Source: a virus. Taken from it: a DNA stretch of 64,000 nt. A model generated the notes under the pieces. The model was not told the origin of the DNA and searched no databases. It saw only the letters and a list, made by a program, of their open reading frames with translations. Made by a program: the position numbers and the translations under genes. Positions 23,249-39,085 of the stretch are shown piece by piece (the stretch's first letter is position 1; each line of letters starts with the position of its first letter). The DNA lies in the IMG/VR virus record IMGVR_UViG_3300042475_005534, positions 24,124 to 88,123 of that record. One strand, given 5' to 3'.

Positions 23249-23282
23249 GTGATTAGTGGTTGAATAGAAAAACGAAAGCCCG

Positions 23283-23308
23283 CCCAGCAAGCAGTGCGCA
23301 CTGCTGAG
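23283..23308 (-). repeat. conserved hairpin element, copy 1
   Basis: CTCAGCAG-tgcgcactgc-TTGCTGGG on the minus strand. Confidence 0.85.
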
Positions 23309-23318
23309 AAAGGGCAAT

Positions 23319-23342
23319 AAAAAAGCCGACCCATTGGCCGGC
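23319..23342 (-). terminator. intrinsic terminator
   Basis: GCCGGCC-aatg-GGTCGGC-TTTTTT on the minus strand. Confidence 0.7.
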
Positions 23343-23393
23343 GAGGTGGTGAGTTATGCGACAGTGGAGGCAGTAGCTTGCGCCCCCGTGGAA

Positions 23394-23798
23394 TTAAAGA
23401 TTCGACTCTATCAAGTCAGCGATCTGAAGGAACGAAAAACCGTTGTCATTAACATCGGTCAGATTTTGACTGCTTAGGTCATATTCGTGGTTAGCGCAGG
23501 AAGGGTCGTCAACCCTAAAGTCGGGCAAACTGACGTTGAACTCCCCTGTCAGCGCGAAGTCGGGATCAACAGCAATTATTCCTGCCCACTTGGCAACCTC
23601 CCCAGGGAGAAGCGCGTCGCAGCGCAGATAGGTCGTGTCTTTGTCGTCCCACCCTGGCCCACCCTGGTCGCGATCGTAGAGATCGCAGAGGACCCCCAGA
23701 CAGCAGTAAGTGTCCCCGCAGCGGAGCTGGCCAATGCCCTGCTGGTAGTTACCTGAGCGCAGGGCGTCGACCCAGAGTTTTTTGATGTGTTCGTGCAT
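23394..23798 (-). CDS. conserved phage hypothetical protein
   Basis: WVDALRSG.YQQG...L...CCLGVLC...ND.G.SF.QIAD.IE. Confidence 0.7.
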   Translation of the reverse strand: MHEHIKKLWVDALRSGNYQQGIGQLRCGDTYCCLGVLCDLYDRDQGGPGWDDKDTTYLRCDALLPGEVAKWAGIIAVDPDFALTGEFNVSLPDFRVDDPSCANHEYDLSSQNLTDVNDNGFSFLQIADLIESNL

Positions 23799-23811
23799 GA
23801 GAATTACCGGC

Positions 23812-24102
23812 TCAGGGCCGGGGGGAGGGGATGCGGTAAAAGGGGTTTTCGTAGCGATGAATGACTTCCATGGCGGCTTGGACTTCCGCCCTGATCAGTC
23901 CTTGAACGTAGCGATGTCTATCATCCTGGTGGGCGTTCCCACACTTGAGTGCCATATCAATAGCAGCAACATGCCTGGCAAGAGCGGCGTAGGCATGAGC
24001 CAGATCTGGTTGGATGATTTCGGGCGTTTCCATGAATAGGCCTGGTTGGGTGATCTCGGTCATTTCGATTCGTGTTGGAAGCGAGGGAAGCGTTTTACCC
24101 AT
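23812..24102 (-). CDS. hypothetical protein
   Basis: Operonic ORF. Confidence 0.5.
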   Translation of the reverse strand: MGKTLPSLPTRIEMTEITQPGLFMETPEIIQPDLAHAYAALARHVAAIDMALKCGNAHQDDRHRYVQGLIRAEVQAAMEVIHRYENPFYRIPSPRP

Positions 24103-24493
24103 CAGGGAGAGCCGCTATAGCGCGGCGGAGGATTGCTTTGTGGGCAGGTCGATAAGTTGGCACGCCGGCTTCTATGGCATCAAAGTGCGCCTCAAGCGCT
24201 TCCAAGGCCTGCTCCTTCAAGCTCGGCGGCTTGGGGCGTCGGGCGACGCGGAGATCATCGATCACGGCTTGTGGATACCACTCGGCACGTAAATGATGCA
24301 AGCATGCTTCCAGCTCAGCATCTGCAGCGGCCTGAATCTCCGGCTCGCGCTGGTCCCAGGCCCATCGGGCGGCCTGGGCAATTAAATAATCAGAGAGTTT
24401 GTCATAGTCGGGATAATCCCATGGAGCTTCTTTTCTCCATTTGACTCGCATCTCTTGAGGCGGGCTGCTGGGGTGCTGCTGTTGTTCAGTCAT
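24095..24493 (-). CDS. cyanophage-type hypothetical protein
   Basis: QAARW...ADAELEAC...LR.ARRPKPPSLKEQAL. Confidence 0.7.
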   Translation of the reverse strand: MTEQQQHPSSPPQEMRVKWRKEAPWDYPDYDKLSDYLIAQAARWAWDQREPEIQAAADAELEACLHHLRAEWYPQAVIDDLRVARRPKPPSLKEQALEALEAHFDAIEAGVPTYRPAHKAILRRAIAALPDG

Positions 24494-24504
24494 GGGTTTA
24501 GGTG

Positions 24505-24569
24505 TTGAACTCAGAGGTTTTTCCGGATAGTTGGATTAGGCGGTCAACACCAGGAGTCAGTCATCGTCA
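24505..24569. repeat. 65-bp direct repeat, copy 1
   Basis: 63/65 identical to 25059-25123. Confidence 0.9.
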
Positions 24570-24633
24570 AAGAAGGGTTGGGCGCCGAACAAGGCAACTT
24601 CCACGGCAGGGGGAGCAATCAAAAGTAGTTGTT

Positions 24634-24855
24634 TCATGGGGTAAGGGGGTCACAAGCCCGGGCGAGGTGAGTCACGACGTCTTCGTAGTAGATCCAGCGC
24701 CAGCATTGGACGTAGGCGCCGTCTTCGTCTTCCCTGCTAATCTTGGCGTCGTCGTCGAACTCAAGTTCGCCATCGCGGCCATAGAGTTCGTTGGCGACCT
24801 GGCGGAGGACCTCATCGTTGGGACCTGGAAATAGGTCAGGCATTGAGTGGCTCAT
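24634..24855 (-). CDS. hypothetical protein
   Basis: DGELEFDDDAKIS...GAYVQCWRWI. Confidence 0.6.
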   Translation of the reverse strand: MSHSMPDLFPGPNDEVLRQVANELYGRDGELEFDDDAKISREDEDGAYVQCWRWIYYEDVVTHLARACDPLTP

Positions 24856-25052
24856 GGCAGGAAGTAAGCAGTAGCCCCAGGAGAAGTGGCTTCCCCTTGG
24901 CTGACGCCGATCAGCCTGCGAGAGGTGTCGAGCGTGCGCCACTCCGAGCGGTAGGGCCAGCGGTCGTTGACAATTCGCGGATGAATGTTGATACCTGCTG
25001 TTGAGAGGCGATTGATTTCAGAAAAGAACTGGTTGCGGTCGACGGGTTTCAT
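24852..25052 (-). CDS. hypothetical protein
   Basis: ATGA-coupled. Confidence 0.55.
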   Translation of the reverse strand: MKPVDRNQFFSEINRLSTAGINIHPRIVNDRWPYRSEWRTLDTSRRLIGVSQGEATSPGATAYFLP

Positions 25053-25058
25053 TGGGCT

Positions 25059-25123
25059 TTGAACTCAGAGGTTGTTCCGGATAGTTGGATTAGGCGGTCA
25101 GCACCAGGAGTCAGTCATCGTCA
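25059..25123. repeat. 65-bp direct repeat, copy 2
   Basis: 63/65 identical to 24505-24569. Confidence 0.9.
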
Positions 25124-25275
25124 GACTCTTCTGCGATGTCGATCTGTCGCTGAACCCAGTCCCAGTAGCCGAGACGGGTGTCGCCCTCAAGGGCTTCGTG
25201 GGCCCAGTCACTAGGCGGAAAGGCTGGGTGTTCACCCCAGTGGCCGCCGTAAAGGGAATCCAAATGGATAGTCAT
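25111..25275 (-). CDS. small hypothetical protein (54 aa)
   Basis: MTIHLDSLYGGHWGEHPAFPPSDWAHEALEGDTRLGYWDWV...DDD; below the ORF-track cutoff. Confidence 0.6.
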   Translation of the reverse strand: MTIHLDSLYGGHWGEHPAFPPSDWAHEALEGDTRLGYWDWVQRQIDIAEESDDD

Positions 25276-25476
25276 TGCGAAATGCGAGAACTGAGTGAAT
25301 AAGGGAGGGGCTCACCGTGCAGCACAACAAACGTCAGTGGTGGACACAACGCTTCTCGTGCATCACAGGAGGTTCGCGCCAGGATGTGAGCAATCCCGGG
25401 CAGGGTGAGATGGCGACCTGGGATTGATCTGGGCCAAGCCAGGGCAAACCGGTAGGTAGCCAAGTGGTGTGGATCA

Positions 25477-25800
25477 TCAATGAGTTGATCCAGCCGAACT
25501 CTCCCCTGAAGAAGCAGGTAGAGATCGGTAGCCAGGAAACGCAGCGCCGCATGCAAGGCACCCAGGATCAAGGTCATTGTCCAGGGCCTCGTAGTGAAAT
25601 GCGGCTGCGATGAAGCCCCCGTATTCCGGGTGCTCAGGGAGGGGATCTCCCTCAAGGAGCCAGTCCCGTTCAGGGATCGGCTTTCCGTCGTGGTGGAAGG
25701 GTGCATACCAGGTGCCTTCATGGAGGGACCATCCAGCAGAACGTCGCACACGGGCGACAGGGCTCAGAAGTAAGACAAGTCTGTCAAGGATGTTGATCAT
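25477..25800 (-). CDS. hypothetical protein
   Basis: ORF in the leftward operon. Confidence 0.4.
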   Translation of the reverse strand: MINILDRLVLLLSPVARVRRSAGWSLHEGTWYAPFHHDGKPIPERDWLLEGDPLPEHPEYGGFIAAAFHYEALDNDLDPGCLACGAAFPGYRSLPASSGESSAGSTH

Positions 25801-26015
25801 TGGGATAAGTGGCACAGGCTAGGGTCTGGGAAGGTGACAACGCTCGTCAGCAATCACAACAACGCACGGACCATAGGCCCGCTCGTGTTGTCTTGCAAGC
25901 CGTGCGAGGTCTCTGGCAGTGCCATTGGCCTCGAGGAAGGGTTGCTTTTTGTTGGGCTCGTAGATCTTGAGGGTCATGATGAGTCAGGAGGGGTGAGTGG
26001 AGGGAAGGAGTGGGA

Positions 26016-27413
26016 TCAGTTGGCGCCGATGCAGGCAGCAGTAGCGGCGAGGGCTGGCGGGGTGGACTGCTCCATCAAGGAGGCGACAGCCTTGGCCCAG
26101 ATGGCAGCTTGCGCCCGGTCGTGTTGCACGCTGCCGTCAGTGCCGCAGTCGTGGGCCAACTCATGGACTAGGACCGATAGGAAGGATTCCATCGATACCA
26201 GGGAGCAGCGGGAGACCCTGATTTTTCCAGTGGAGGCGTGATGGGTCCCGAGGATGGTGGGACTAGAGAAGTCGACGATGCTGACGCGCCCGAGCAGGGG
26301 TGCCAACTCGAGCGCAAGTCCAGCGCCGCCGACCAATCCCATGCCACGCAGGTAGATCACCTGCTCGCTTTCTGTGAGATCAGCAATGGTGTAGGTCTGA
26401 GTGATGGCACCGACCTCGCTCTTTTTGATCTGATCAAGATCAAGGTCGCTGCCCTTGAAGAAATCACAGAGGAGCTTGGAGGAGAGGATTCCCATCCGTC
26501 CGTAGTGGCCGGCCTCCTTGTAGTCGGAGGCGGAGTGGACAGGGATGGCGGTGTCGCCATGGGCATCTCGGAAGAGTCCCTCGACGCAAGCGCGGAGGCC
26601 ATGATCGGGAGTGGCGAACTCGTAGTAGCAGAGGTCTTGCTTGCCAGAAGCCAGGAGATCCAGGACTTGCTGGGCCACGGATTCGGAGCCGATGCTGTCG
26701 GTGAATGCTTCTCGGCTCTCCTCGAAGTGGTTAAACAACTGCTCCCACAGCTTGACCCTGTTGTACTTGGCGTCATAGCTGTTGACCATGCGCCGGTCCC
26801 GATCGGTCGAGGCATGGAGAAAGTTGTAGCCGTACTGAAGGTTGTCATCGCCTTCCACCCAGATGCCTTTGACGTAGGACTGGCTGTGGAATTTGGGCTC
26901 CATCAGGACCTGGCCGCTGGTGGTCTTGATGGCTGTTGTGTCCTGGAAATCGAGGAAGCGATCACGGAAGGAACGCCATTCGGCAAGAGTGATTTGGACT
27001 TCAACGACGAAATCCTCTGCGGCCCTAGGGAGATGACGGGTGCGGATGGTCAGAACGTCCTGGCCGAACTCCTTGGATGGAGCAATGAGTGGCGTCCAGG
27101 ATTCGTCACCATTGAGGAAGCGGATCTGACGACCAGCCCGGGCTAGAGCAAGGGCGCCGAGCTTGAGGCCTTCACCGAAGTGACCGCGCTGGGAGTCATC
27201 ACCAGCCTTGGTGGTCTGGCCCATGAGCCAGACATTGCGCTGCAGCTTGGCGCCACTGCTACTGACACGCAAGTGGCGGCCGGTGTGACTGATGGAGAGC
27301 TCGTGGCCGATATCACGGGCATCGAGGGCGTTCTGGATGACTTCGCGAACACCCTCGTAGATGCCCCAGTCACTGACGTATTCGGGGCTGATGGTGAGCT
27401 GAAATGTTGCCAT
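26016..27413 (-). CDS. GHKL-type ATPase with C-terminal HExxH motif
   Basis: REVIQNALD, G.T.K...GHFGEGLKLG; VLVHELAH. Confidence 0.75.
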   Translation of the reverse strand: MATFQLTISPEYVSDWGIYEGVREVIQNALDARDIGHELSISHTGRHLRVSSSGAKLQRNVWLMGQTTKAGDDSQRGHFGEGLKLGALALARAGRQIRFLNGDESWTPLIAPSKEFGQDVLTIRTRHLPRAAEDFVVEVQITLAEWRSFRDRFLDFQDTTAIKTTSGQVLMEPKFHSQSYVKGIWVEGDDNLQYGYNFLHASTDRDRRMVNSYDAKYNRVKLWEQLFNHFEESREAFTDSIGSESVAQQVLDLLASGKQDLCYYEFATPDHGLRACVEGLFRDAHGDTAIPVHSASDYKEAGHYGRMGILSSKLLCDFFKGSDLDLDQIKKSEVGAITQTYTIADLTESEQVIYLRGMGLVGGAGLALELAPLLGRVSIVDFSSPTILGTHHASTGKIRVSRCSLVSMESFLSVLVHELAHDCGTDGSVQHDRAQAAIWAKAVASLMEQSTPPALAATAACIGAN

Positions 27414-27461
27414 GAATGAAATGAGGTAGAGAGTTCAGGGATAAGGGGAACTGCGCACCGA

Positions 27462-27484
27462 AACAGGCAGTGTGCACTGCTGAG
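27462..27484 (-). repeat. conserved hairpin element, copy 2
   Basis: CTCAGCAG-tgcacactgc-CTGTT. Confidence 0.85.
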
Positions 27485-27533
27485 TGGGCCCAACGAACTA
27501 GGAATCAGCGGCTCCGGGGAAAGCGCTGAATAC

Positions 27534-27965
27534 TCAAACCACTGAGCGCTGTGGGGGTGCTTCCTTGAAAAGATGTCTGTAGGCTCCTCGCGGCATGAGC
27601 CAATCTGTTCTCCATTCCCCATCGGAAGAGAAGGAGAAAGCGGGGCAGTGGTGGGCTATACGCAAGAGACAGAGACAGACGGCTAGGTCATAGGGTTTGT
27701 GCGCTGTTTTGCAGAAGTTGAATTCCCTATCAGCGCGACCAGGACTGAATGGGACATGAAAAGTCTCGTAGCCGTCCCCACCAGCACCGTTAAGTCGAAT
27801 TTCCGACTTTGTTACAAGAGGAGGGAGATTGTTGTCGTATTCGGCCTGTAGAGCGATTCCCTGCTCCCCGCAGTACGAGACAATCTTGCGAGTATCTCTG
27901 CAGATTGCAGACCATTGATCAAGGGTAAAGTCTTTGGATTGCTGCCAGTAATGTGTGTAGCCCAT
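27534..27965 (-). CDS. conserved hypothetical protein
   Basis: MGYTHYW...NG.....ETF...FCKTA.KPYD.AV...SSDG. Confidence 0.7.
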   Translation of the reverse strand: MGYTHYWQQSKDFTLDQWSAICRDTRKIVSYCGEQGIALQAEYDNNLPPLVTKSEIRLNGAGGDGYETFHVPFSPGRADREFNFCKTAHKPYDLAVCLCLLRIAHHCPAFSFSSDGEWRTDWLMPRGAYRHLFKEAPPQRSVV

Positions 27966-28033
27966 TTGATAGTGGGTGCAGGTGGAAATAGAAGGAGAAG
28001 GGCCGCCAAGCGCGGCCCCGTTGGCGGAAGCGA

Positions 28034-29122
28034 TCAGGCATGGACCAGTTCGCGGGCGACTTCATTGGCCCGCTTGATGACACCAGCGCCGGTGCCGAAG
28101 AGGGCCGAGTGGATGCGGCGCTTGCCGGCGCCTTGGGTCTTGCCGGAGGATTCGACTTCGGTGACGGCATTGAGGCCCCAGTAGAGGGTGCCTGCAACGC
28201 CCGGGATGTCACGGCCGAGGCCGTAATTCCAGGCGTGCTCGAGCTTGGCCCACTTGCGGGGCATGTCTTCGATGGAGCCAGGGCGGGTGTCGCCGTTGTC
28301 CATGCGGACAGATGGGATTTGCTTTTCGTAGACCTGCTCAAGGAAGTGCCGGTAGAGATCGGTGGTCATGGGCACCTCCCGCATGGCGCGGTACTCATCG
28401 ACGACCTGGGCAAAGCTCTGGCGAGCAATGTCGATACTGGAGAGGATGCGATCGATTTGGGCCACATCGTTCTCGGTGTGCTTGATGGTGAACTGCCGGC
28501 CGTGGCGGTTAGCGTCGTTCATGGCGTAGCCGAGGGTGTTCAAACAGACGACCCTGGTGTCAGTGAAGATCCCTCCGAAGGCAGTGCTGCCGTCGTGGCC
28601 GAGGTAGCCGACGATGTTGCGGTAGACCTTGTCACCAGGGATGACCTGCTGGTCAGTGCCGCGGATCTTGGCAGTGAAGGCCACCTTGGCACCCTCGCGC
28701 AGGACGATCACAGCATCCATGTCGCATTCTTCCCGTAGGGCAGAAGCGAAATCCAGCAGGCGCTGGTTGGGGATGATCTTGTAATCGGGGCTGGCGGTGC
28801 CGAGGATCTTGCGGGTGTCGGGACGCCAGATGGCAACACGGCTGTCCGCCATGCTGATCAGGTGCTGATACGCGGCCTGGTGGATGGCTTCTCCACGCTC
28901 TTGCGGGGTAGAGAAGGGCTGGTCAGCCGCCAGGGCAATGGCATCGAGGAGCTCAGGATTGCTGAGGTCGCCGGCCCAGAGCTGGAGCTTCTCCACAGGG
29001 AAGAGAGCTCCGTAGCGACGGAAGGCGTCAGGGGCGGGCATGGTGCCTTCGATGACGTCGCCTTCGGGGTGCCAGGCGGCAGTGCCGTGCATGAAGACTG
29101 CAGAAGTGACTTCGTGTGCCAT
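28034..29122 (-). CDS. DUF932-family phage/plasmid protein
   Basis: MAHE...AWH, HDG, T.TRVVC.NTL, HT, GTLY..LNAVTE. Confidence 0.8.
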   Translation of the reverse strand: MAHEVTSAVFMHGTAAWHPEGDVIEGTMPAPDAFRRYGALFPVEKLQLWAGDLSNPELLDAIALAADQPFSTPQERGEAIHQAAYQHLISMADSRVAIWRPDTRKILGTASPDYKIIPNQRLLDFASALREECDMDAVIVLREGAKVAFTAKIRGTDQQVIPGDKVYRNIVGYLGHDGSTAFGGIFTDTRVVCLNTLGYAMNDANRHGRQFTIKHTENDVAQIDRILSSIDIARQSFAQVVDEYRAMREVPMTTDLYRHFLEQVYEKQIPSVRMDNGDTRPGSIEDMPRKWAKLEHAWNYGLGRDIPGVAGTLYWGLNAVTEVESSGKTQGAGKRRIHSALFGTGAGVIKRANEVARELVHA

Positions 29123-29165
29123 GGGATTTAAGAAATGGATGAGAAAGTGAAAGGAGAAGACGGGG

Positions 29166-29750
29166 CTAGCGGCTGGGGAGGGCCACTACCCCTTGCTGAA
29201 GGGATTGATTGATTTGGGCGATGGCTGCAACCATGTCGGCTTTGGAGCCGCCGATGTTTTCAGCTCTGACCTGGGCGATGGATTCCCAGTCAGGACCGCA
29301 GACGCAGACATTGATGAACGTCGGCTTGCGGTTCTTGACTCGACCCTCACCCTTTGAGGTGATCAGCTTGACTGCCTGGGTAGTCAGATCAAGAACGAGC
29401 AGCGCCCCTAGAAGGCTTTTGATGGAGTTGGAAGTAGAAACCTGGCCAGGTTCTCTGTCCACGGGACGCTCATCAGCGGGCAGAAGCAGACGAAACGGCT
29501 GAGTAGGAGCACCAGAGATCATGCGTACCTCGAGGTAATCACGAGGGCCTGACTCGGTGTTCCCTGCTAGCTGGATCAAGCGGAGGGCAGTGATTGCCCC
29601 GCGGATCTCAGGGAAGATGACGTCCTTGCGGTCATACAGGTAGAAATTGGCTAGGGGGTCGATGCCGATGGTCATCGGCTGAGGAGGGGGAGGAGTGGGA
29701 GTCGCCCAGTGGGGTAGCTCGGGTGATTGAGTGGATAGAGAGGAAGTCAT
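29166..29750 (-). CDS. hypothetical protein
   Basis: First ATG after hairpin copy 3. Confidence 0.6.
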   Translation of the reverse strand: MTSSLSTQSPELPHWATPTPPPPQPMTIGIDPLANFYLYDRKDVIFPEIRGAITALRLIQLAGNTESGPRDYLEVRMISGAPTQPFRLLLPADERPVDREPGQVSTSNSIKSLLGALLVLDLTTQAVKLITSKGEGRVKNRKPTFINVCVCGPDWESIAQVRAENIGGSKADMVAAIAQINQSLQQGVVALPSR

Positions 29751-29768
29751 GGGCAAATGAAATGAACG

Positions 29769-29791
29769 CAGCAGGTCGTGCGCACTGCTGA
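29769..29791 (-). repeat. conserved hairpin element, copy 3
   Basis: TCAGCAG-tgcgcacgac-CTGCTG. Confidence 0.85.
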
Positions 29792-29808
29792 ACAGGCGCA
29801 AGAATTTG

Positions 29809-30580: not shown

Positions 30581-31369
30581 TCACTTGATGGACCAGGTCT
30601 TCTTGCGAACGACCTCAGCGCCAGGGACTGCGTCTGATCTCAGGACGACCGCATGCGTTGCTGGGCCGTAAGCCGCTGAGAGGGAGCGGACTTCTTCGGG
30701 GGCTGGATTTTGCTTGATGCGTTCCTTGACAAGATTCTTGATTGGATAGGAATTAAGGGTTGGCAAGAGATAATCACCTCCCGACACACCAGTGATGAGC
30801 TCAGCAATGAAATCACTGATTTCCTTGTGAAGCATGGGGCCTAAATCACCCTTGCCAGCAGGGACTTGGATGATGATTTCGTGCCGGCACAAATCCGGCG
30901 GGACCTGCTGGTCATCCAGGATCTCGGTGGAGTCACTCTGACGTGAGCAGAGGTCGTAATCCGAAAGATGGAATTCCTTCTTGCCAGGGTGGAGGGCCGC
31001 CAAGGTTCGAACCAGGTAGCGGAGCAAGCGATCGGAATCGGCCTGGTCGCGATTGCTCTTCTCCTTGTAGGTCTCGACCTGCTGCTTGAAGTAATCAGCA
31101 CGGTTCTCCAGTGACTTAACAACAAAGGCCATTTGATTGACCTTGTCCAGCAATGACTGCTGGCTGGTATTGGCGCGTTGGAGGATAGAGGAGATGAGCT
31201 CTTCTGCAGTAGCTACCTCTTCGGGGTCCTCAGAGGAGAGCTGGGCGACGGCAATCGCAAGCTCGCCGTCAATCTCCTGGGCCTCCATGGCCAGATGGAA
31301 GAGGGATCTGCCATTGGCCTGAACAATGGGCTCAAAGGTGGTGGGCTTGGGTGGTGGAGCGACGGTCAT
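30581..31369 (-). CDS. Siphovirus Gp157-like coiled-coil protein
   Basis: SLFHL...DKV....VK.LE...RL..YL...RQS....I.D...VP; terminal VPGA......W.IK. Confidence 0.6.
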   Translation of the reverse strand: MTVAPPPKPTTFEPIVQANGRSLFHLAMEAQEIDGELAIAVAQLSSEDPEEVATAEELISSILQRANTSQQSLLDKVNQMAFVVKSLENRADYFKQQVETYKEKSNRDQADSDRLLRYLVRTLAALHPGKKEFHLSDYDLCSRQSDSTEILDDQQVPPDLCRHEIIIQVPAGKGDLGPMLHKEISDFIAELITGVSGGDYLLPTLNSYPIKNLVKERIKQNPAPEEVRSLSAAYGPATHAVVLRSDAVPGAEVVRKKTWSIK

Positions 31370-31430
31370 AGGAGTGAGATGGAAGGATGGAGTGTCTGGC
31401 GGTATGCCCGACGTGGCGGTCATTGAAGCA

Positions 31431-31456: not shown

Positions 31457-31482
31457 CGTTGCTACCGAAACAGATGTTGGTC

Positions 31483-31902
31483 TTAGGCGGTTTGAGCCTC
31501 GCCGGAGTCGTCGGACTTGCTGGGAGCGTCAGTGATGTTGATCACTTTGGCTTGCTTCCTGGCGTCCTGCAGCTGCTTGAGCTGACAGGCACGCATGCCG
31601 ACCTGGAGGGCGCTCAGCCGGTATGGCTTCCCTTCCTCCGGGGATTGGACGATCTTGGCGAAGTAGGTCACTCCGTTGATCTCGACGGACTCGGATGGAT
31701 CATCCTCGCCAAACATCTCGATGGCGTGGTCGGACTTGAAGCCAACCTTGACGGCTGTCTCACGAACAGCGATGCCGTCCTTGCGGCCGGTCACGAAAGC
31801 CAGGGTGGCCTCAGTCCAGTTGGACTTTTCGGAGTTGTCGCTGTCGAGAATGTTGTACCAGCGAAGCTCGATGGGAACGAGGGGAAGAGAGATTTGGGGC
31901 AT
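31483..31902 (-). CDS. hypothetical protein
   Basis: Single gene bracketed by hairpin copy 4 and a terminator. Confidence 0.65.
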   Translation of the reverse strand: MPQISLPLVPIELRWYNILDSDNSEKSNWTEATLAFVTGRKDGIAVRETAVKVGFKSDHAIEMFGEDDPSESVEINGVTYFAKIVQSPEEGKPYRLSALQVGMRACQLKQLQDARKQAKVINITDAPSKSDDSGEAQTA

Positions 31903-31935
31903 GATCAGAGGAAAGGGTAAAGGGACATTGGCCCG

Positions 31936-31961
31936 CTCAACAGGCAGTGTGCACTGCTGAG
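31936..31961 (-). repeat. conserved hairpin element, copy 4
   Basis: CTCAGCAG-tgcacactgc-CTGTTGAG. Confidence 0.85.
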
Positions 31962-32009
31962 AAGGCTCACAAAACAGGAACTAGACTGAGAGGGATCCAG
32001 GATCGAGTT

Positions 32010-32695: not shown

Positions 32696-32722
32696 GTTGT
32701 CGGGCATTGCGCAACACACGTC

Positions 32723-33121
32723 ATGCAGTGCGAATGCGGTGGTGAGACAAAGGTGGCTCACACCTACAAGGGGGAAGACGGGATACGAGTGAGAGCTAGG
32801 AAGTGCGACTGTTGCAGTCAAATGCTGTGGACGTCTCAACAGCCAGAGGAGGTGATCCCAGCTGAGCTGAGGCAGTGGACAGATGGGAAGCCATGCCGTG
32901 CGGCGGAGCCGAGACAGAAGGGGTCTCGCATGCCACCGACGATCGAGGAGTGGGAGGCCAATCCAGAGATGGCCTATGGCCTCAAGGCTGACGAGTTGAG
33001 GACGCTGGCAAGGCTCAAGGGTTTAACTGGAGCATGGATGTTCAACAAGACTGAGTTGCTGGAGTTCCTGATGGAAGGAGCCTGGCAGACGGGCCTAGCG
33101 AGTGAGAACCACGCGCAATAG
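32723..33121 (+). CDS. zinc-ribbon protein with C-terminal Rho-N-like helical domain
   Basis: C.CG.ETKV..T....R.RKC..C; ELR.LAR.KGL.G....K.EL. Confidence 0.6.
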   Translation: MQCECGGETKVAHTYKGEDGIRVRARKCDCCSQMLWTSQQPEEVIPAELRQWTDGKPCRAAEPRQKGSRMPPTIEEWEANPEMAYGLKADELRTLARLKGLTGAWMFNKTELLEFLMEGAWQTGLASENHAQ

Positions 33122-33272
33122 GGCCCTCCAAGGAAGAAGTCCTTGGCATCGTTAGCTGCTGCAACCCCGAGGTAGAGGAATAGGGCCGCAGAAATGGAGA
33201 GCCGGAGGCTTTTACCGAGCTTAGGTCGATGGAGAGAAGTCATGGGGTTGAGAAAGAAGTGAAGTGTGTTGG

Positions 33273-33704
33273 TCAGGAGGGCGGAAGACAGATCACACGA
33301 AAGCCGATGTAGTCGTCGGTATAGCCGGGCAGGTCAATGCCGCGGTGAGCCAAGCGGCGGTCTGAGGGGAGACTGTCCCAGCCGCCGCCGCGCAATACCG
33401 CCCGGCATGGTGCTTCTTCCTGGGGGAGGCACACCACGCGAAACCCGATGACGTCGTTGGCATAGCCGGGCTGGTCGCGGTAGCGGTAGACCGAGCGGCA
33501 GTTCCTGGGGAAGTTGAACCAGGAGCCACCGCGCATTGACAAGTCGCAGCGTGCGGTGGAGGCCCCTGGAGGGACGCACACCACGCGGAAACCGATGTTG
33601 TCGATTGGCTCGCCGGGTTCTCCGGGAAAGCGATGGGCAGAGCGGCAATGCCTAAGGAAGAAGTCCCAGGGACCGCCGCGTAACGCCCGATTGGGGATCG
33701 TCAT
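33273..33704 (-). CDS. protein made of 3 tandem DGR-VR-like units (RGG.W...CRS..R...GFRV)
   Basis: Starts MTIPNRAL, ATGA-coupled; three units of the FGE/CLec C-terminal motif. Confidence 0.7.
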   Translation of the reverse strand: MTIPNRALRGGPWDFFLRHCRSAHRFPGEPGEPIDNIGFRVVCVPPGASTARCDLSMRGGSWFNFPRNCRSVYRYRDQPGYANDVIGFRVVCLPQEEAPCRAVLRGGGWDSLPSDRRLAHRGIDLPGYTDDYIGFRVICLPPS

Positions 33705-34153
33705 GGTGTCATCCCCCGCGGAAGACAGATCACACGAAAGCCGAGGTCGTAGTCGGCATAGTCGGGCGAATGGGAAATGCCGCGACAGGTCGAGCGGCAC
33801 CAGGGGTAGCTGAGCTGGGCGTGGGAGCCGCCGCGCATGGTTACCTGCGTGGGCTTGACCCCCAGAGGGAGGCACACCACGCGGAAGCCCAAGCCGCTGC
33901 TGGCATAGCCGGGCTGGAAGCGTCCGAAGCCGCGGCAGGCCGAGCGGCAGAACCCGGGGTTGTTGCCCCAGGAGCCACCGCGCAGTGGCGGTAGCATCCG
34001 AGGTGGTGCCACCTCCCGAGGGAGGCACACCACGCGGAAACCGACGAGATCGTCTTGGTAGTGCGGAGCGGCGCGTCGGTAGGACAAGCGTAAATACGCC
34101 TGTTGTTCCGTCCTGAAAAACCAAGTACCGCCGCGTTGCACTTGATACGTCAT
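33701..34153 (-). CDS. protein made of 3 tandem DGR-VR-like units
   Basis: RGGTW/RGGSW/RGGSH ... GFRVVC x3; ATGA-coupled at both ends. Confidence 0.7.
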   Translation of the reverse strand: MTYQVQRGGTWFFRTEQQAYLRLSYRRAAPHYQDDLVGFRVVCLPREVAPPRMLPPLRGGSWGNNPGFCRSACRGFGRFQPGYASSGLGFRVVCLPLGVKPTQVTMRGGSHAQLSYPWCRSTCRGISHSPDYADYDLGFRVICLPRGMTP

Positions 34154-34554
34154 GACCTGCTCAGCAGGAGGAGCAGGTCAGAGCGGCGAGCTCGGGAGAC
34201 CTTGTTGCCGCGGTGCCCCCGCTCGCGAGCCAGGGCACGCAGCTGGGACACATTGAGGCTGAGGTCGATTCCATTGAGAGCGCAGCGGAAGGCTGTTAGC
34301 TCCGGGTCTTCTGTAATGGGCACAGAGAGAGTCATAGGAGGGATGGATTGGGGTTCAGGGGGAGTGAGGCCGAGGAGGTGGAGATGGAGGGCTGCTAGCT
34401 GCTGGCTGCGCTCTTCCAGGGCAAGACGCAGCTGGCCGCCGGCGGCGTAGGAGGCGTCGGCAAGATGCCAGAGCAGGGCAATAGCAATGCAGAAAAAAGG
34501 GGCGGCTTGATGCATGAAATGTCGAAGCCGGCCCCCAATCAGATCGGAATGCAT
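34150..34554 (-). CDS. hypothetical protein with hydrophobic segment and C-terminal Rho-N-like motif
   Basis: LNVSQLRALARERG...RARRSDLL. Confidence 0.55.
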   Translation of the reverse strand: MHSDLIGGRLRHFMHQAAPFFCIAIALLWHLADASYAAGGQLRLALEERSQQLAALHLHLLGLTPPEPQSIPPMTLSVPITEDPELTAFRCALNGIDLSLNVSQLRALARERGHRGNKVSRARRSDLLLLLSRS

Positions 34555-34564
34555 GGGCAGGGAA

Positions 34565-35284
34565 TCAATAGGGCCTGTATTCGTTGCGGCACCACTCGAA
34601 GACCTGGCCGTGCATGTCGTAGAGGCCCCAGGCATTGGGTTGGTACTGCTTGACATCGCAGGTGGAATCTGCGTTGAAGCGTGCCTGGGACTCATCGAGG
34701 GTGTCACCGAAAGCGAATTCAGTGGTGGTGCCTGCGCGGCAGGCGTATTCCCACTGTTCTTCTGTGGGGAGGGTGTAGGTCTTACCTGTAGCCCGGCTGA
34801 GGCGGGCACAGAATTCCATGGCGTCATACCAGGAGACGCATTCGACGGGGCGGTCATCGCCCTTGAAGCGTGAGGGATCGGGATTGAGATCGCGCTCGAC
34901 CTTGGGCAGGTTCTCGGCGACCCATCGCCACTGGGCTTGAGTGGTCGGAGTTTCCGCCATCTCAAAGCCCTCGTCGATGATCACCTCATGGACCGGCTTC
35001 TCATCAGAGAAAGCGGACGGTGAATCAGATCCCATCATGAAGCGCCCTGGAGCGATGGAAACCATCGGCAGGTTGAGGGCGGAAGCGGAGATGCTGTGAT
35101 TGGAGGTAGTCATGGTTCCTGAAGAAATGGAAGATGGATGGAGGAGGCGGCAGGGGCGAATCCCGATGATGGGGAGGGCGCAGGCCTTGTTGACGCTGCC
35201 CCGGAGGGTGGCACGGCAGTTGCGTGGTTCGTCACTGATCCAGGAGCCACCGCGCAGCTGCCGATGGGCGTCAAGGGCTGTCAT
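34565..35284 (-). CDS. FGE-sulfatase / C-type-lectin-fold protein, C-terminally truncated or circularly permuted
   Basis: MV.I.PG.F.MGS, E.PVHEV, TQAQW, PVE.VSW.DA.EFC, LPTE.QWEYACRAG, PNAWGLYDMHG..FEWC then stop; RGGSW unit at the N-terminus. Confidence 0.85.
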   Translation of the reverse strand: MTALDAHRQLRGGSWISDEPRNCRATLRGSVNKACALPIIGIRPCRLLHPSSISSGTMTTSNHSISASALNLPMVSIAPGRFMMGSDSPSAFSDEKPVHEVIIDEGFEMAETPTTQAQWRWVAENLPKVERDLNPDPSRFKGDDRPVECVSWYDAMEFCARLSRATGKTYTLPTEEQWEYACRAGTTTEFAFGDTLDESQARFNADSTCDVKQYQPNAWGLYDMHGQVFEWCRNEYRPY

Positions 35285-35643
35285 GGCGCCACCTCCCGAG
35301 AGAGGCGGACCACACGAAAGCCGAGGCCGTAGCCGCGGTAGCTACCGACGGGCGGGTCGTCTTCGCGGAAGGCCGAGCGGCAATAGCTGGGAGCTTCGTC
35401 CCAGCCGCCGCCGCGCAGCACCGCCCGGCATGGTGCCACTTCCCGAGGGAGGCGCACCACGCGAAACCCGACGTCGGTAAGGTTTCCCTCTTCGCCTAAG
35501 ACGGCCTCACTTAGCTCTGCCTCGTGGCGGCCAGCCGAACGGCAGGTATAGGAGGCTTCGCCATAGGAACCACCGCGAATGGAGTTTCCCAGGGAAAGCG
35601 GTAAATCAAGAGACAGTAGAAAAGGGGACAAGCGATAACCCAT
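35281..35643 (-). CDS. protein made of 2 tandem DGR-VR-like units
   Basis: RGGSY...CRSA...GFRVV and RGGGW...CRSA...GFRVV. Confidence 0.7.
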   Translation of the reverse strand: MGYRLSPFLLSLDLPLSLGNSIRGGSYGEASYTCRSAGRHEAELSEAVLGEEGNLTDVGFRVVRLPREVAPCRAVLRGGGWDEAPSYCRSAFREDDPPVGSYRGYGLGFRVVRLSREVAP

Positions 35644-35675
35644 GAGACATCAGAGAGGGGTGCATGCCATGGTGA

Positions 35676-36335
35676 TCAGGAAGGGGTCACAACAGGCGCC
35701 TCTCGGATGAGCCGCAACAGGGATTCCCGCTGCCGGCGAGTTTCGGCGGCCCTGGCGGCGGCCCCGGCGGCGTCCCTGGCGGCGTCCCAGGCGGCCCAGG
35801 CGGCCCCGGCGGCGTCCCTGGCGGCGTCCCAGGCGGCCCAGGCGGCCCTGGCGGCGTCCCTGGCGGCGTCCCAGGCGGCCCAGGCGGCCCTGGCGGCGGC
35901 CCCGGCGGCGGCCCAGGCGTTTTTCTCCCAGACGTTGCCAGAAGCCAGTAAATCCATGCCATCAATAACTGGGTCAATAACGGCCTGGATTTCGAGCCGC
36001 TGAGGAGGGAGATTCCTTAGGGTTTCACCGAGGAAGGCCCAATGGATCAAGGAGAGGTCTTTACCGTCCGTAGCCACAGCGTCGGGGAAGTCGTAGAAGA
36101 ATTGCTTAGCTTCCTCGAGCGGAAGAGATTCAAAGATGTGTTCCGCGATGCGAAGAATGGACTCAGTGAGCCCAAATCGCTCCACAGCAGGAGTGGAGTC
36201 GTTTGAATGGGTCAGGCACCCGATGAAGCAGCCTTTGCCGTCTGACCAGTAATTACCCTGGACGACGGAATCCGCCGTGATGTGTTCGTGGACCTCCTGT
36301 TTGAGGAGGTCGGTGTTCTTGGTGAGGGTGGTCAT
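35676..36335 (-). CDS. hypothetical protein with AAWAAWDAARDAA repeats
   Basis: YW..GKGC.IGC..H N-terminus; Ala-rich tandem repeats at 35745-35920. Confidence 0.75.
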   Translation of the reverse strand: MTTLTKNTDLLKQEVHEHITADSVVQGNYWSDGKGCFIGCLTHSNDSTPAVERFGLTESILRIAEHIFESLPLEEAKQFFYDFPDAVATDGKDLSLIHWAFLGETLRNLPPQRLEIQAVIDPVIDGMDLLASGNVWEKNAWAAAGAAARAAWAAWDAARDAARAAWAAWDAARDAAGAAWAAWDAARDAAGAAARAAETRRQRESLLRLIREAPVVTPS

Positions 36336-36524
36336 AAGAAAAGAATTGAGAGGAGGTTAGCCCGCATGCCATGGCTAACAAGTCGCCCGGCACGGCTCTG
36401 TAAGAGCGCTAGGACACGCAATTGCTTAATGGCCATGGACTCCAGGAGAGGCCGAGCGACGGCCATGGAAGGGGCCACTGGATGGATTAGGGCCCCGCCC
36501 GGGTGGATGGGGCCTGGATGTACC

Positions 36525-37088
36525 TCAGAAGGGAACTTCCTCTGAGGTGGGCTCACCCGAGAAGGGAGCCTCGGGCTCGCTCATCGGAGAGGGGCTATCC
36601 AGCCTTGCAACGGGCTGGAAGGACACAACGATCCATTCGGTGTTGCGAGTGCTTACAGGGCCCTCTGGACCGGCAGTGGTGCCGTGCCAGGGGCGCTCGT
36701 ATGCAGTGATGCGCACGAGGCGATCGTCTGTGTTGAAGAATTCACCGATGGTCTCAGCGAGTTCGCCGTATGCGGTGAAGTTCTTCCAGTCGCCGAAGAC
36801 CCTGGAATTGGTCTTCTTGCTGAGGTATCCATATTGGGCACCAAACTTGATAAAGGCTGTGCCGTTAGGAGTGAAGCCTTGGCGAGAGCCTTTGGGGGGA
36901 GTCCTTTGGAGCCAAAGGGTCTGATTGAGCTGTTCGCCTGAGGACTCCAGCTCAGTGATTCTTGCCTTGGCGGCTTCGAGCTCAGCGACGAGCTCTTCGT
37001 AGATGCCAAAGATGGGCTGTTCTTCGGGAGCTTCAGGTGCCACGGGGGTGGCGGTAGAGGAAGGCTTGGACTTGGTGGCAGTGGACAT
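36525..37088 (-). CDS. possible OB-fold/SSB-like protein
   Basis: DWKNFTAYGELAE; acidic EEVPF C-terminus reminiscent of SSB tails. Confidence 0.45.
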   Translation of the reverse strand: MSTATKSKPSSTATPVAPEAPEEQPIFGIYEELVAELEAAKARITELESSGEQLNQTLWLQRTPPKGSRQGFTPNGTAFIKFGAQYGYLSKKTNSRVFGDWKNFTAYGELAETIGEFFNTDDRLVRITAYERPWHGTTAGPEGPVSTRNTEWIVVSFQPVARLDSPSPMSEPEAPFSGEPTSEEVPF

Positions 37089-37110
37089 GGGGATTTCCAG
37101 TGAGGGGTAT

Positions 37111-37151
37111 TGAGCCGCACAACAGGCGGTGTGCACTGCTGATTTGGCTCA
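37111..37151 (-). repeat. conserved hairpin element, copy 5
   Basis: TGAGCC-aaat-CAGCAG-tgcacaccgc-CTGTTG-tgc-GGCTCA. Confidence 0.9.
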
Positions 37152-37202
37152 GTGAATAGGATCAAAGGGAGGGGTGCCAGGTATGACACCCCAGAAGATA
37201 CA

Positions 37203-37472
37203 TCAAGCAGCCGCTCGCCGCAGCTGGCGAAGCGTTTGCTGATTATCGAGGCAGAGGGTGCGTGCTGTGGTGACAGCGGCGACCATCTGCTGGGTGATGG
37301 TGAGGCCATCTTGCTTGGCCCAGAGGGCATCAAGGATGACCTCACGGAGGGCTTCGATTTTGCGATCGATAGAGCCTTGGAGGACCCGCCCAGTGGAGGG
37401 GCAGGTCCAGATGCTTGCCCTTGCGAGCAAGCGTAGATCAATAGACAGAGAATGAAGGTTGTTCTCGGTCAT
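37203..37472 (-). CDS. small hypothetical protein
   Basis: Cassette gene downstream of hairpin copy 6. Confidence 0.6.
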   Translation of the reverse strand: MTENNLHSLSIDLRLLARASIWTCPSTGRVLQGSIDRKIEALREVILDALWAKQDGLTITQQMVAAVTTARTLCLDNQQTLRQLRRAAA

Positions 37473-37509
37473 TGAGGGGTAGCCCGGTTGCTAACCGGGG
37501 CGAAGGGAT

Positions 37510-37614
37510 GTGAGCCGTAGACAGCAGGTGGCACTGCTGAGAAGGCTCACTAAAAAAGCCCCACCCGGGGGATAGCCGGATGGGGCGGGGTAGGGGGTGC
37601 CAGATGTGGCACTA
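37510..37614 (-). repeat. composite intergenic repeat (GTGCCA hairpin + terminator + hairpin copy 6)
   Basis: Near-identical blocks at 37799-37900 and 38319-38414. Confidence 0.9.
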
Positions 37615-37616
37615 GC

Positions 37617-37763
37617 TCATCGGTGGATGAGGGGATAGAGGGGGTCGAAGAACAGACCCATGTCGCCATGGCATAGAGCCAGGCGAAGAATGAAGCCGAG
37701 AGCCAGACACCCAGCGAGGTAGGTCTTGGGGTTGGCTTCGGCGAAGGAGGCGATGGTGCGCAT
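37617..37763 (-). CDS. small membrane protein (48 aa)
   Basis: MRTIASFAEANPKTYLAGCLALGFILRLALCHGDMGLFFDPLYPLIHR; fills the space between two repeats. Confidence 0.55.
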   Translation of the reverse strand: MRTIASFAEANPKTYLAGCLALGFILRLALCHGDMGLFFDPLYPLIHR

Positions 37764-37798
37764 GTGAGTAGCCGGCGGCTAGCCGGGGGCAAGGGATG

Positions 37799-37900
37799 TG
37801 AGCCGTAGCAGGTGGTGTGCACTGCTGATTTGGCTCAATGGAAAGCCCCACTTGGATGGTTCCGAGCGGGGCGGGGTAGGGGGTGCCAGATGTGGCACTA
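37799..37900 (-). repeat. composite intergenic repeat including hairpin copy 7
   Basis: TAGTGCCACATCTGGCACCCCCTACCCCGCCCC...GGGGCTTT...TGAGCCAAATCAGCAGTGCACACCACCTGCTACGGCTCA. Confidence 0.9.
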
Positions 37901-38089
37901 GGTGTACCAGCGGGGATCATCCTCCTCCGGGGAGAGGAGCATGTCCCCTATGGGCATGAAGGAGGAGGAGGAGAAGAGATCCCATCCGGCGTTGTAGTCG
38001 GGATGGGATCGGTAGTCTCCATCGCTATCGATAGCACGCATGTGCATGCATTCGATCGCGGAGCCCATCCAGGCGTGGTTGATGCTCAT
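37898..38089 (-). CDS. small hypothetical protein
   Basis: Stop codon supplied by the repeat. Confidence 0.55.
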   Translation of the reverse strand: MSINHAWMGSAIECMHMRAIDSDGDYRSHPDYNAGWDLFSSSSFMPIGDMLLSPEEDDPRWYT

Positions 38090-38091
38090 AA

Positions 38092-38310
38092 TCAGTTGAT
38101 GACAGGGATTTCGGCTACTTGCTCACGGCAGGACGTGTCGAAGAAAGCCTGCATGGAGTGGTCATCTATGGCGTGCTCACGGCGGGATATTTCGCGGAAG
38201 ACCTCCATGAGGCGATCATCCACAGATGGGTCTTCCGTGAGGCGGTATTGGTCGGCGAGCTGGTCAGCTAGCTGATGGAGCTGGAAATCGGAAAGGGATG
38301 TAAGGGACAT
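38092..38310 (-). CDS. small hypothetical protein
   Basis: ATG just after hairpin copy 8. Confidence 0.55.
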   Translation of the reverse strand: MSLTSLSDFQLHQLADQLADQYRLTEDPSVDDRLMEVFREISRREHAIDDHSMQAFFDTSCREQVAEIPVIN

Positions 38311-38318
38311 AGAAACGA

Positions 38319-38414
38319 AGAAGGTGGTGTCCACTGCTGAGTGGACTCAGTAAAAAAGCCCCACTCGGATGACTCCAAGCGGGGCGGGGGTAGGGGGTGC
38401 CAGAGGTGGCACTA
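38319..38414 (-). repeat. composite intergenic repeat including hairpin copy 8
   Basis: Same architecture as the other two; hairpin stem has one mismatch. Confidence 0.85.
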
Positions 38415-38708
38415 GAGGGGAGTGTGCTCATGATCAAGGGTGTCGCAGAGGCGATCCCAAATGCTCTGGAGCCTGTCGGGTCCGGAGCCCCGGAGGCTCT
38501 CCCACCAGGCATCACGGGGGCGATACCCGAAGGCATCTTTGTGTAGGTCGCTAAAGAGATCAATGCGGTAGGAATAGCCCTCGAGCGGGAAGGACTGGGT
38601 GGACCAGGCCTCCGGGGAGATATAGGAGCCGTAGATTTCGCGGTCGAAGGATTCCCGTTCTTGCCGCCAAGCAAGGTCTTCAGGTGAAAGGGTTGCGGAA
38701 TTAGTCAT
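38412..38708 (-). CDS. small hypothetical protein
   Basis: FSDLHKDAFGYRPR motif seen in phage early proteins; stop supplied by the repeat. Confidence 0.65.
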   Translation of the reverse strand: MTNSATLSPEDLAWRQERESFDREIYGSYISPEAWSTQSFPLEGYSYRIDLFSDLHKDAFGYRPRDAWWESLRGSGPDRLQSIWDRLCDTLDHEHTPL

Positions 38709-38733
38709 GGAAATTGCGGGTAGCGAATGGATG

Positions 38734-38772
38734 TGAGCCGTAGCAGGTGGTGTGCACTGCTGATTTGGCTCA
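38734..38772 (-). repeat. conserved hairpin element, copy 9
   Basis: Identical to the copy 7 core. Confidence 0.9.
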
Positions 38773-38816
38773 ATGGAAAAAGCCCCTGATCCAGTAAAGG
38801 ACCAGAGGCGAAGGGA

Positions 38817-38996
38817 TCAAGCAATCGCTTGAGTCCGAAGTGTGGCGAGAAGGCGGCGAGCCCTCTCGATGCAGTAACTCGTGGACTGGGGCCATAGTCC
38901 ACGCGCTCCCTTGAGGGGGTAGACGCTAACTGCAACGGTCTCAGGATTGAGAGTGCTGAAGCGGTAGACCCGATCAGCAAGAATGACGGTAGCCAT
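38817..38996 (-). CDS. small hypothetical protein (59 aa)
   Basis: MATVILADRVYRF...; first gene after hairpin copy 10. Confidence 0.5.
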   Translation of the reverse strand: MATVILADRVYRFSTLNPETVAVSVYPLKGARGLWPQSTSYCIERARRLLATLRTQAIA

Positions 38997-39059
38997 TGAG
39001 GTTGCTGCTGCAATAGCAGTAGTTGTCGGGCGCTTATCTCCCGTGAAAGCGCTATGCTT

Positions 39060-39085
39060 CTCAACAGATGGTGTGCACTGCTGAG
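39060..39085 (-). repeat. conserved hairpin element, copy 10
   Basis: CTCAGCAG-tgcacaccat-CTGTTGAG. Confidence 0.85.

Follow-up and report, generated by a model that had tools for sequence, protein, structure and literature searches.

A 64,000-nucleotide stretch of viral DNA (the window; bases 24,124-88,123 of IMG/VR record IMGVR_UViG_3300042475_005534) carries ten copies of an oriented motif ahead of leftward early genes. Each copy is built on the 13-nucleotide core TCAGCAGTGCACA, and seven are folded into a hairpin by a surrounding inverted repeat. We propose from the sequence, and with about an even chance of being right, that these copies are the core of a lineage-specific promoter, set in terminator-promoter cassettes of the promoter-early stem-loop (PeSL) kind. 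Promoter function, start point, and reader are what we infer from the positions, conservation, and covariation of the motif and from the exchange of whole cassettes between genomes.

Ten oriented copies in the leftward early arm

The window holds 11 matches to TCAGCAGTG, every one on the minus strand; the expected number is 0.84 (mean of 100 shuffles; the largest count was 4, and 0 of 100 reached 11). Ten of them share TCAGCAGTG(C/G)-(A/G)CAC, or the same with a loop one base shorter, and by regular expression these are the only such sites in the genome. The full core, TG-N7-TCAGCAGTGCACA, has exactly ten sites in the 88,123-bp genome, all of them intergenic. The first T of TCAGCAG (T1, the first T of the core) lies, in plus-strand coordinates, at 23307, 27483, 29791, 31960, 37142, 37540, 37828, 38340, 38763, and 39084. 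All ten copies have a single orientation and occur only in the first 16 kb of the leftward arm, and the first plausible leftward ATG begins 30-88 nt past T1 of each. An earlier note on this DNA had placed ten copies in one orientation before leftward start codons, and every one of them was found there, on the minus strand. Two parts of the signal were missing from its consensus: a near-invariant TG at -9/-8 and TGCACA, the unchanging first half of the loop. A covariance model trained on 45 unique copies recovers only the ten copies from the 88-kb genome (E <= 6e-7), with the next match at E = 1. The eleventh match to TCAGCAGTG, at 40547, lies antisense within a gene and has no other part of the motif. 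Partial cores (TCAGCAGTGCGCT) were seen at window positions 40539-40547 and genome positions 4507-4519 (both minus strand), antisense in genes and with no upstream TG; the two are probably chance occurrences, or weak antisense starts.

The copies differ in their folding and surroundings. Their coordinates here run from -13 to +42 around T1, all on the minus strand. Copy 1 (23266-23320; core 23295-23307; 48.6 bits) forms the hairpin (z -2.5), has a terminator directly upstream at 23325-23342, and precedes an ATG at 23248. Copy 2 (27442-27496; 59.6 bits) has the core and no hairpin (z -0.2), and the ATG of a 465-aa phrog_6077 gene follows at 27413. Copy 3 (29750-29804; 37.6 bits) has the core variant TGCGCA and no motif hairpin (z -0.9), and its ATG, at 29750, is just 41 nt past T1. 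Copy 4 (31919-31973) forms the hairpin (z -3.1) ahead of an ATG at 31902, which opens a conserved 139-aa gene that we used for tracing orthologous sites. In copy 5 (37101-37155; ATG 37088) the hairpin is joined by an outer TGAGCC/GGCTCA stem (z -3.6), and in copy 6 (37499-37553) both stems are intact around a loop of only 6 nt (z -4.8); copy 6 has a terminator upstream at 37558-37586 and a second, CCGG hairpin before its ATG at 37472. Copy 7 (37787-37841) forms the hairpin (z -2.7) downstream of GGGGC and a T-rich tail, and serves a 48-aa gene (ATG 37763) that is conserved in relatives. Copy 8 (38299-38353), with a terminator upstream at 38358-38385, has the core variant TGGACA and no motif hairpin, its z of -1.7 belonging to a different fold. 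The hairpin forms in both copy 9 (38722-38776; z -3.2), which lies between a terminator at 38782-38809 and an ATG at 38708, and copy 10 (39043-39097; z -1.6), whose first ATG is at 38996. Copy 10 is the first of the leftward arm and borders the non-coding control region.

Twelve of the 20 genes served have no PHROG family, and two have a named function, one of them Mu Gam-like. A Mu Gam-like protein is a typical early function. A scan of 185,579 species genomes with the hairpin-containing pattern returned only 6 single matches, in unrelated taxa; judged by that pattern, cellular genomes do not carry the motif as a repeated element.

Conservation of the core in related phages

An exact 14-mer scan of IMG/VR returned 77 stretches, mostly single chance matches, and four contigs with several matches each; a second 14-mer scan added three further contigs. 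The same core is present in these seven related contigs, with 2-9 copies each in one orientation. When the records of the relatives were searched with up to two mismatches, one strand held 9 copies in G001, 7 each in G002 and G003, 6 in G004, 8 in G005, 6 in G006, and 2 in G007, and the other strand held 1 in G005, 2 in G006, and 0 in the rest. The reversed pattern, used as a control, gave 1 and 1 matches in G001, 1 and 0 in G006, and 0 elsewhere. Five two-mismatch matches with neither TG nor module were excluded (G005_49254, G005_59973, G006_58117, G006_61813, and G006_67724). The final set comprises 53 copies from eight genomes, 50 standard and 3 variants at the edge of the control region; collapsing of identical rows took the series from 53 copies to 50 and to 47 or 45 unique ones. 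The variants, which were left out of the logo and alignment, read TCAGCGGTACACAC or TCAGCAGTACACAC, keep TG at -9/-8, and occur in three relatives (G002_54528, G004_12892, and G006_643), each at the far edge of the non-coding region; the variant is absent from this genome and from G005.

A logo of 47 unique copies from the eight genomes shows which letters are held. Each position of the core, +1 to +13 (TCAGCAGTGCACA), is constant in 43-47 of 47 copies. The T at -9 and the G at -8 are each present in 46 of 47 and the C at -1 in 42 of 47, while a T-rich tract at -17 to -12 and CTGYT from +17 onward are partly conserved. The 139-aa protein downstream of copy 31960 is 32-42% identical between lineages, and nucleotide invariance beside so diverged a protein points to strong selection, not to recent common descent. 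Distant relatives, located through the 139-aa protein in IMG/VR and in JGI/ENA metagenomes, have drifted cores: nCAGCTGTGCACT in G008, and TCAGCAGTGCATT, TCAACAGTGCATT, and TCAGCAGTGCCCA in others, with the variants TGCACT, TGCATT, and TGCCCA. The TG at -9/-8 is retained in G008 and in one inspected metagenome copy, and most distant copies retain the hairpin.

On contigs outside its training set, the covariance model gave 11 matches, 9 of them distinct, and it gave none in positions 1-45,000 of Synechococcus phage S-EIVl. The earlier note had proposed both such a model and a search of related phages; together these yielded the ten genome copies, in one orientation throughout, and the core in the seven related contigs. 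In the literature searched, the core string (as a 12-mer) turned up in 11 papers, none of them on phages to judge by title.

An optional hairpin around the core

The hairpin is real, and it is optional. It had been described for all ten copies; in fact, the described structure forms in 7 of 10 (z -1.6 to -4.8) and is missing from those at 27483, 29791, and 38340. The outer TGAGCC/GGCTCA stem occurs, as claimed, in four copies (37142, 37540, 37828, and 38763). The hairpin has a loop of 9-14 nt and 8 + 6 pairs (~14 in total). Across lineages, the outer stem alters its sequence and its register while pairing is maintained and the 5' arm does not change. Ahead of the 139-aa gene, a hairpin is present in all lineages seen; its outer stem differs each time and its register sometimes. 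The hairpin-less state is also kept at orthologous sites (e.g., G002_46147, G004_21422, G005_44620, and G006_76533).

Covariation of the two arms, as the earlier note had asserted it, is thin within the window alone and becomes convincing across related phages. In a MAFFT alignment of 45 unique copies, standard pairs fill 72.2% of the cells of the 14 proposed pairs, and sliding the partner by 1-3 columns lowers this to 35-46%. Covariation scores 0.195 versus 0.165 in shuffles (reached by 0 of 500), and double-change cells number 24 versus 14.3 expected (1 of 500 shuffles). Among held-out copies, 77.0% of cells pair versus 32-50% when slid, in an alignment that was fitted to the model and leans toward it, and the covariation score is 0.270 versus 0.156 (reached by 0 of 500 shuffles). 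We also joined each copy's 5' half to the 3' halves of other copies, a chimera test that needs no alignment. Native copies averaged -19.5 kcal/mol versus -16.3 for chimeras, with a bimodal distribution: 26 of 45 native copies are more stable than their chimera mean and 11 of 45 fall in the best tenth, while about a dozen are worse than nearly all chimeras. RNAalifold predicted no consensus structure for the 45 unique copies, owing to shifting registers and to the quarter to a third of copies that have no hairpin.

The 630 stem cells comprise 368 Watson-Crick, 87 G.T, 21 A.C, and 154 other combinations, counts that are not independent events since many rows are orthologous copies. With G.T in excess over A.C, the structure is assigned to the sense strand, whether as RNA or as DNA of the non-template strand. 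Of 24 strong hairpins, 20 are more stable when folded from the sense strand, as are 26 of all 45 copies (Wilcoxon p = 0.10). A palindromic site for a dimeric protein was rejected, as the left half varies, covaries with the 3' arm, and does not mirror the right half.

A second small hairpin, CCCGG-N6-8-CCGGG, occurs in many leaders about 8-10 nt before the ATG (window 37203-37500 and 37617-37790, and in relatives). Its stem letters are invariant, with no covariation, and its loop is variable; it may be a 5'-terminal or ribosome-related structure.

A proposed cassette for transcription start

We suggest that the copies are the cores of cassettes for transcription start in the leftward early arm. 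Such a cassette would open with the end of the preceding unit (its terminator or stop codon) and a T-rich tract, continue with TG, a variable stretch of seven bases, TCAGCAGTGCACA, and CTGYT, and close with a CU-rich leader that leads to the ATG without a Shine-Dalgarno sequence. By scan, terminator-like hairpins with T runs end ~10 nt before 23307, 37540, 38340, and 38763. Copy 37828 follows the GGGGC and T-rich tail, which looks like a terminator by eye and was not listed by the scan; with it, the earlier observation that several copies sit right after intrinsic terminators is upheld. Three of the terminators (37558-37586, 38358-38385, and 38782-38809) have 11-12-pair stems and T runs, and the one at 23325-23342 has 7 pairs. 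A crude regular expression finds a G-run and T-tract before 21 of 50 copies across relatives.

Genes behind such strong terminators have to be started anew, and nothing but the motif is conserved between terminator and ATG. The first leftward unit is also headed by a copy (39084), which would favor a start signal, and core and ATG are separated by anything from 29 to 88 nt, a variability normal for promoters and unlike that of translational operators. Terminators, first unit, single orientation, and variable distance together suggest that a promoter fits best among the roles the earlier note had listed, which included a phage-specific, possibly hairpin-type promoter. The early-type orphans that the copies precede, with the Mu Gam-like gene, also speak for a start signal. 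Whole cassettes are also replaced. When window 36000-39600 is compared with G001 21237-26375, the segments 38987-38418 and 37841-37615 of this phage (G000) are replaced in G001 between flanks that are 95-97% identical, and the junctions coincide with terminator-plus-signal modules. This is the behavior seen in PeSL shuffling, as described in the excerpted text of PMC2839356.

In the proposed mechanism, the transcribing enzyme, or a factor that gives it specificity, would read TG and the 13-mer on DNA. In hairpin-less copies, start codons that protein comparison shows to be conserved stand at +29 to +41, and in one conserved gene family they stand at about +34 to +41. Transcription should therefore begin before about +30, with TGCACA in the place of a -10 element; a -35 role for TGCACA was rejected for the same reason. 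The inverted repeat would be an optional second layer on the sense strand. In read-through transcripts the hairpin could act as RNA, as an attenuator or insulator of the sort found in PeSL cassettes; alternatively, a DNA hairpin of the non-template strand might expose TGCA... in its loop.

Sigma70, sigma54, extracytoplasmic function (ECF), and Bacteroidota-type readings of the motif were rejected by eye. A sigma54 promoter has GG at -24 and GC at -12 at fixed spacing. In both possible registers the motif has TG where GG is required; one register also has GT for GC in roughly half of the copies, at a spacing to the core that varies by 1-4 nt. As the earlier note had remarked, there are no obvious sigma70 boxes: sigma70-like sites number 2 in 19 kb versus 5.0 expected, both on the plus strand and none at a copy. 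By eye, no TAnnnT stands at a fixed place downstream of the core.

The search for a reader

What, then, might read the core? No phage RNA polymerase or sigma factor was recognizable, in the rest of the genome as in the window, so the host polymerase would be the most likely reader, guided by a further host or phage factor. PF00940 (phage RNA polymerase) had no match in the genome, and control genomes likewise gave no signal; PF04542 (sigma factor) had no match in the genome. The T7-like motif R-x3-K-x6-8-YG occurs once in the genome, inside the DUF932 protein, and the two-barrel polymerase motif DxDGD is absent from every frame. The sole open reading frame (ORF) above 1,000 aa matches tail-fibre families, and ORFs of 919 and 943 aa match no polymerase family. 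We considered the 919-aa ORF, which lies beside the control region, as a hidden polymerase and rejected it: it has no family and no informative Atlas neighbor (best 0.77), and it is of low complexity, rich in Pro, Gly, Ala, and Arg.

The earlier note had nominated a helix-turn-helix (HTH) protein at 5191-5811 as the binding partner. It has only a sub-threshold match to HTH_31 (E 0.039; 14.7 bits versus a cut-off of 27) and no PHROG family, and none of the scanned reader candidates, this protein included, has a significant DNA-binding family. No integrase was found by Pfam, and phrog_1 gave a weak match (E 8.6e-7). A search of Rfam, also suggested by the note, returned 0 matches at gathering score in 64 kb, and at E <= 10 the region 36900-39600 gave weak terminator-like matches only. 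A trans-acting ribozyme or guide RNA was rejected, as no hammerhead or other ribozyme model matched. The complement of the core was found in the genome only as CTGCTG runs, on the opposite strand of 39347-39489.

Alternative explanations

Several points weigh against a promoter. The core resembles no known promoter consensus, and the second position of TGCACA is not the A required in -10 elements of the sigma70 family. Family and motif scans recognized no polymerase, sigma factor, or other candidate reader in the phage, and the PF00940 search had no working positive control; the host inference rests on one distant protein match to S-EIVl. The predominance of G.T over A.C is as expected of RNA structure, the outer stem extends to the start codon in three copies, as RNA structure would, and an RNA that contains the whole hairpin has to begin upstream of the core. 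It is conceivable that transcription of the early arm comes from upstream and that the motif acts within RNA, where its 5' arm and loop start (CAGCAG UGCA) would be bound by a host or phage protein in processing between cistrons, 5'-end protection, antitermination, or translation control. We find this doubtful overall, and keep it as a serious rival because of the wobble bias on the sense strand and the outer stems that touch the start codon. The stronger sense fold agrees with it, as do an outer stem that covaries and shifts register beside a constant 5' arm, and pairing of that stem with the start codon region by different sequences in G003_18895 and G001_22957. Five window copies have no upstream terminator and so would be contained in read-through RNA, and the invariant CCGG hairpin comes next in many leaders. 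However, strong terminators just upstream of ~40% of copies would halt most RNA earlier, and no element that follows a terminator can suppress it. Nor is there a conserved promoter upstream of the first copy, a fixed distance to the AUG, or an Rfam family, ribozymes and known antitermination RNAs included, and the hairpin is missing in a quarter to a third of copies that have the full core.

Other readings keep transcription start and change what is recognized, or give the site another task altogether. A promoter presented by its hairpin to the cellular multi-subunit RNA polymerase is unlikely in our judgment. On supercoiled DNA the sense strand would fold and display the 5' arm and the TGCA... 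loop pre-melted, arm and loop would together replace the -10 element, and the host enzyme with a host or injected factor would do without a phage polymerase; if true, structure-dependent promoters would for the first time be known from outside the N4 virion-polymerase system. Still more remote is an N4-type hairpin promoter served by an injected phage RNA polymerase too divergent for recognition. The signal does head the very first early unit and lie inside an inverted repeat in which some stem bases are fixed, others covary freely and only pair, and the loop is conserved, as in N4 early promoters (PMC4496689, in its excerpted text). Yet N4 requires a giant injected polymerase and a short hairpin centered at -11 on the template strand (same excerpt), whereas this phage has an optional hairpin of ~14 pairs, missing from some copies, with a loop of 9-14 nt, not 3, and wobble pairs that favor the sense strand. 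No virion polymerase signature was seen either: PF00940 gave no match in a search without a positive control, no T7-like or two-barrel motif turned up in any frame beyond the single occurrence in the DUF932 protein, and the longest ORFs are the tail-fibre match, the low-complexity 919-aa ORF, and the 943-aa ORF without polymerase family. The N4 form of a hairpin promoter is accordingly not supported. A stoperator- or operator-like DNA site, by which a phage repressor would block or tune early transcription, is quite improbable, although an invariant, asymmetric 13-nt core in many intergenic copies oriented with transcription is the pattern of Cluster A stoperators (excerpts of PMC9283540 and PMC3203893). 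Stoperators, by the same excerpts, span a whole temperate genome and are bound by an immunity repressor; here the sites are limited to one 16-kb block of one arm, no repressor was found, and the integrase evidence is weak. Copy-specific covarying stems would be left unexplained, and genes past terminators would have no promoter. The swapping of cassettes between two near-identical genomes, with junctions at modules, could instead suggest a recombination signal, either a single-strand, attC-like hairpin site or a homology patch that moves gene cassettes, and a strand-specific structure with one conserved arm and a variable rest would suit it. We hold this to be very unlikely, and an integron attC site was rejected: no integron-type integrase or integrase domain was found, sequence is conserved on the 5' side of the hairpin only, and orthologous sites are stable across lineages whose proteins are 32-42% identical. 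Exchange at repeated regulatory cassettes also requires no dedicated site, to go by the excerpted account of PeSL cassettes (PMC2839356).

Relation to known systems

Returning to a promoter cassette, PeSL cassettes of T4-type phages (Arbiol et al. 2010, PMC2839356; the comparison follows its excerpted text) come closest among known systems. They share the architecture, setting, and shuffling and differ in their start signal. In both, repeated composite modules that combine a terminator or stem-loop with a start signal lie between small orphan early genes, and close relatives differ by insertion or replacement of cassettes at these modules. The PeSL stem-loop can overlap the promoter, has G-T pairs, and may attenuate transcription from upstream. 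In contrast, the PeSL start signals are strong -35/-10 promoters of the sigma70 type, accompanied by Shine-Dalgarno sites, whereas this phage has no sigma70 boxes, an invariant 13-mer, a separate canonical terminator upstream, and a second hairpin around the core.

The start-associated sequences (SAS) and their extended form (ESAS) in Cluster K mycobacteriophages (Pope et al. 2011, PMC3203893) offer another parallel; the excerpted text gives their function as unknown. There too, a 13-nt asymmetric motif precedes many non-structural genes in one orientation and is retained across subclusters before different genes, and about half of the SAS sites have an added imperfect inverted repeat with a better conserved left arm. 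However, SAS lies 3-7 bp from the start codon and contains a ribosome-binding AGGAG, whereas the core described here lies 30-88 nt upstream, has no AGGAG, and is enclosed by its inverted repeat, not preceded by it.

In the searches made here, the signal matches no known promoter, RNA family, or operator. It would be a highly specific 13-letter word with an optional hairpin, read at the start of infection although neither a polymerase nor a sigma factor was seen in the phages themselves. Should it be a promoter, it would imply a new specificity of the cyanobacterial polymerase, or a new phage factor that redirects that polymerase, and it could give cyanobacterial genetics a compact, portable, phage-controlled start signal. 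The core variants of distant relatives (TGCACT, TGCATT, and TGCCCA) make the reader traceable by co-variation.

The phage, its host, and the control region

The record has terminal repeats and is rated complete, and family searches give the window the gene content of a tailed phage. It encodes a primase/helicase (2455-4938), a dCTP-deaminase-like gene interrupted by an intein with an HNH endonuclease domain (8208-9947, minus strand; PF22769, PF14890, and PF13392), a subtilase (14797-17019), and virion and tail-fibre proteins. The Mu Gam-like end-protection protein (30581-31423) and the DUF932 protein (28034-29122) lie in the early arm, on the minus strand. The leftward arm starts at ~39.1 kb with small orphan genes, followed by DNA metabolism, and the rightward arm starts at ~39.7 kb with virion genes. 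A giant tail-fibre-like gene on the minus strand has in-frame coding repeats with a period of ~168 bp (window 62700-64000 and genome 1-2848) and apparently continues across the ends of the record. Most genes of the phage have no Shine-Dalgarno sequence, and a tRNA search found none.

All 24 source runs of the DNA are lake-water metagenomes. Near-identical DNA records are absent among 50,697 GenBank phages, and the single match there to a 758-aa virion protein is Synechococcus phage S-EIVl, at 42% identity. By this match the phage is probably S-EIVl-like with a cyanobacterial host, likely a picocyanobacterium. HIP1 sites number 0 in the genome and are uninformative as a cyanobacterial mark. S-EIVl-like phages of lake picocyanobacteria are common, and to our knowledge nothing is known of their gene expression. 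Literature searches found no paper on S-EIV1 transcription, and nothing for this lineage on cyanophage early promoters with stem-loops.

The divergent arms are separated by a non-coding control region of ~440 nt (39098-39535), made up of GCAGCAGC repeats and then a G-poor, CT-rich half. Its GGAGGAAAAAAAAGA block is conserved in four lineages, among which no leftward sigma70-type promoter is conserved. Three TATACT boxes in the CT-rich half are present in this genome only. The region could be an origin of replication or a long non-coding RNA gene. A canonical sigma70-like promoter of the rightward arm, TTGATT-17-TATGAT (39613-39641, plus strand), lies behind an A/T-rich stretch, and ordinary promoters therefore exist in this phage.

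S-EIVl has upstream repeats of its own. CCTGTCCYAAGCATGACAYTAAACTGC, which contains a TAAACT box, occurs four times (42957, 38756, 33554, and 29121), and two copies of CTGATCCGTCAAAGCGGGT (43732 and 43419) are each followed by a hairpin with covarying stems, whose loop, TGCAAAC, is close to the TGCACAC loop of the phage described here.

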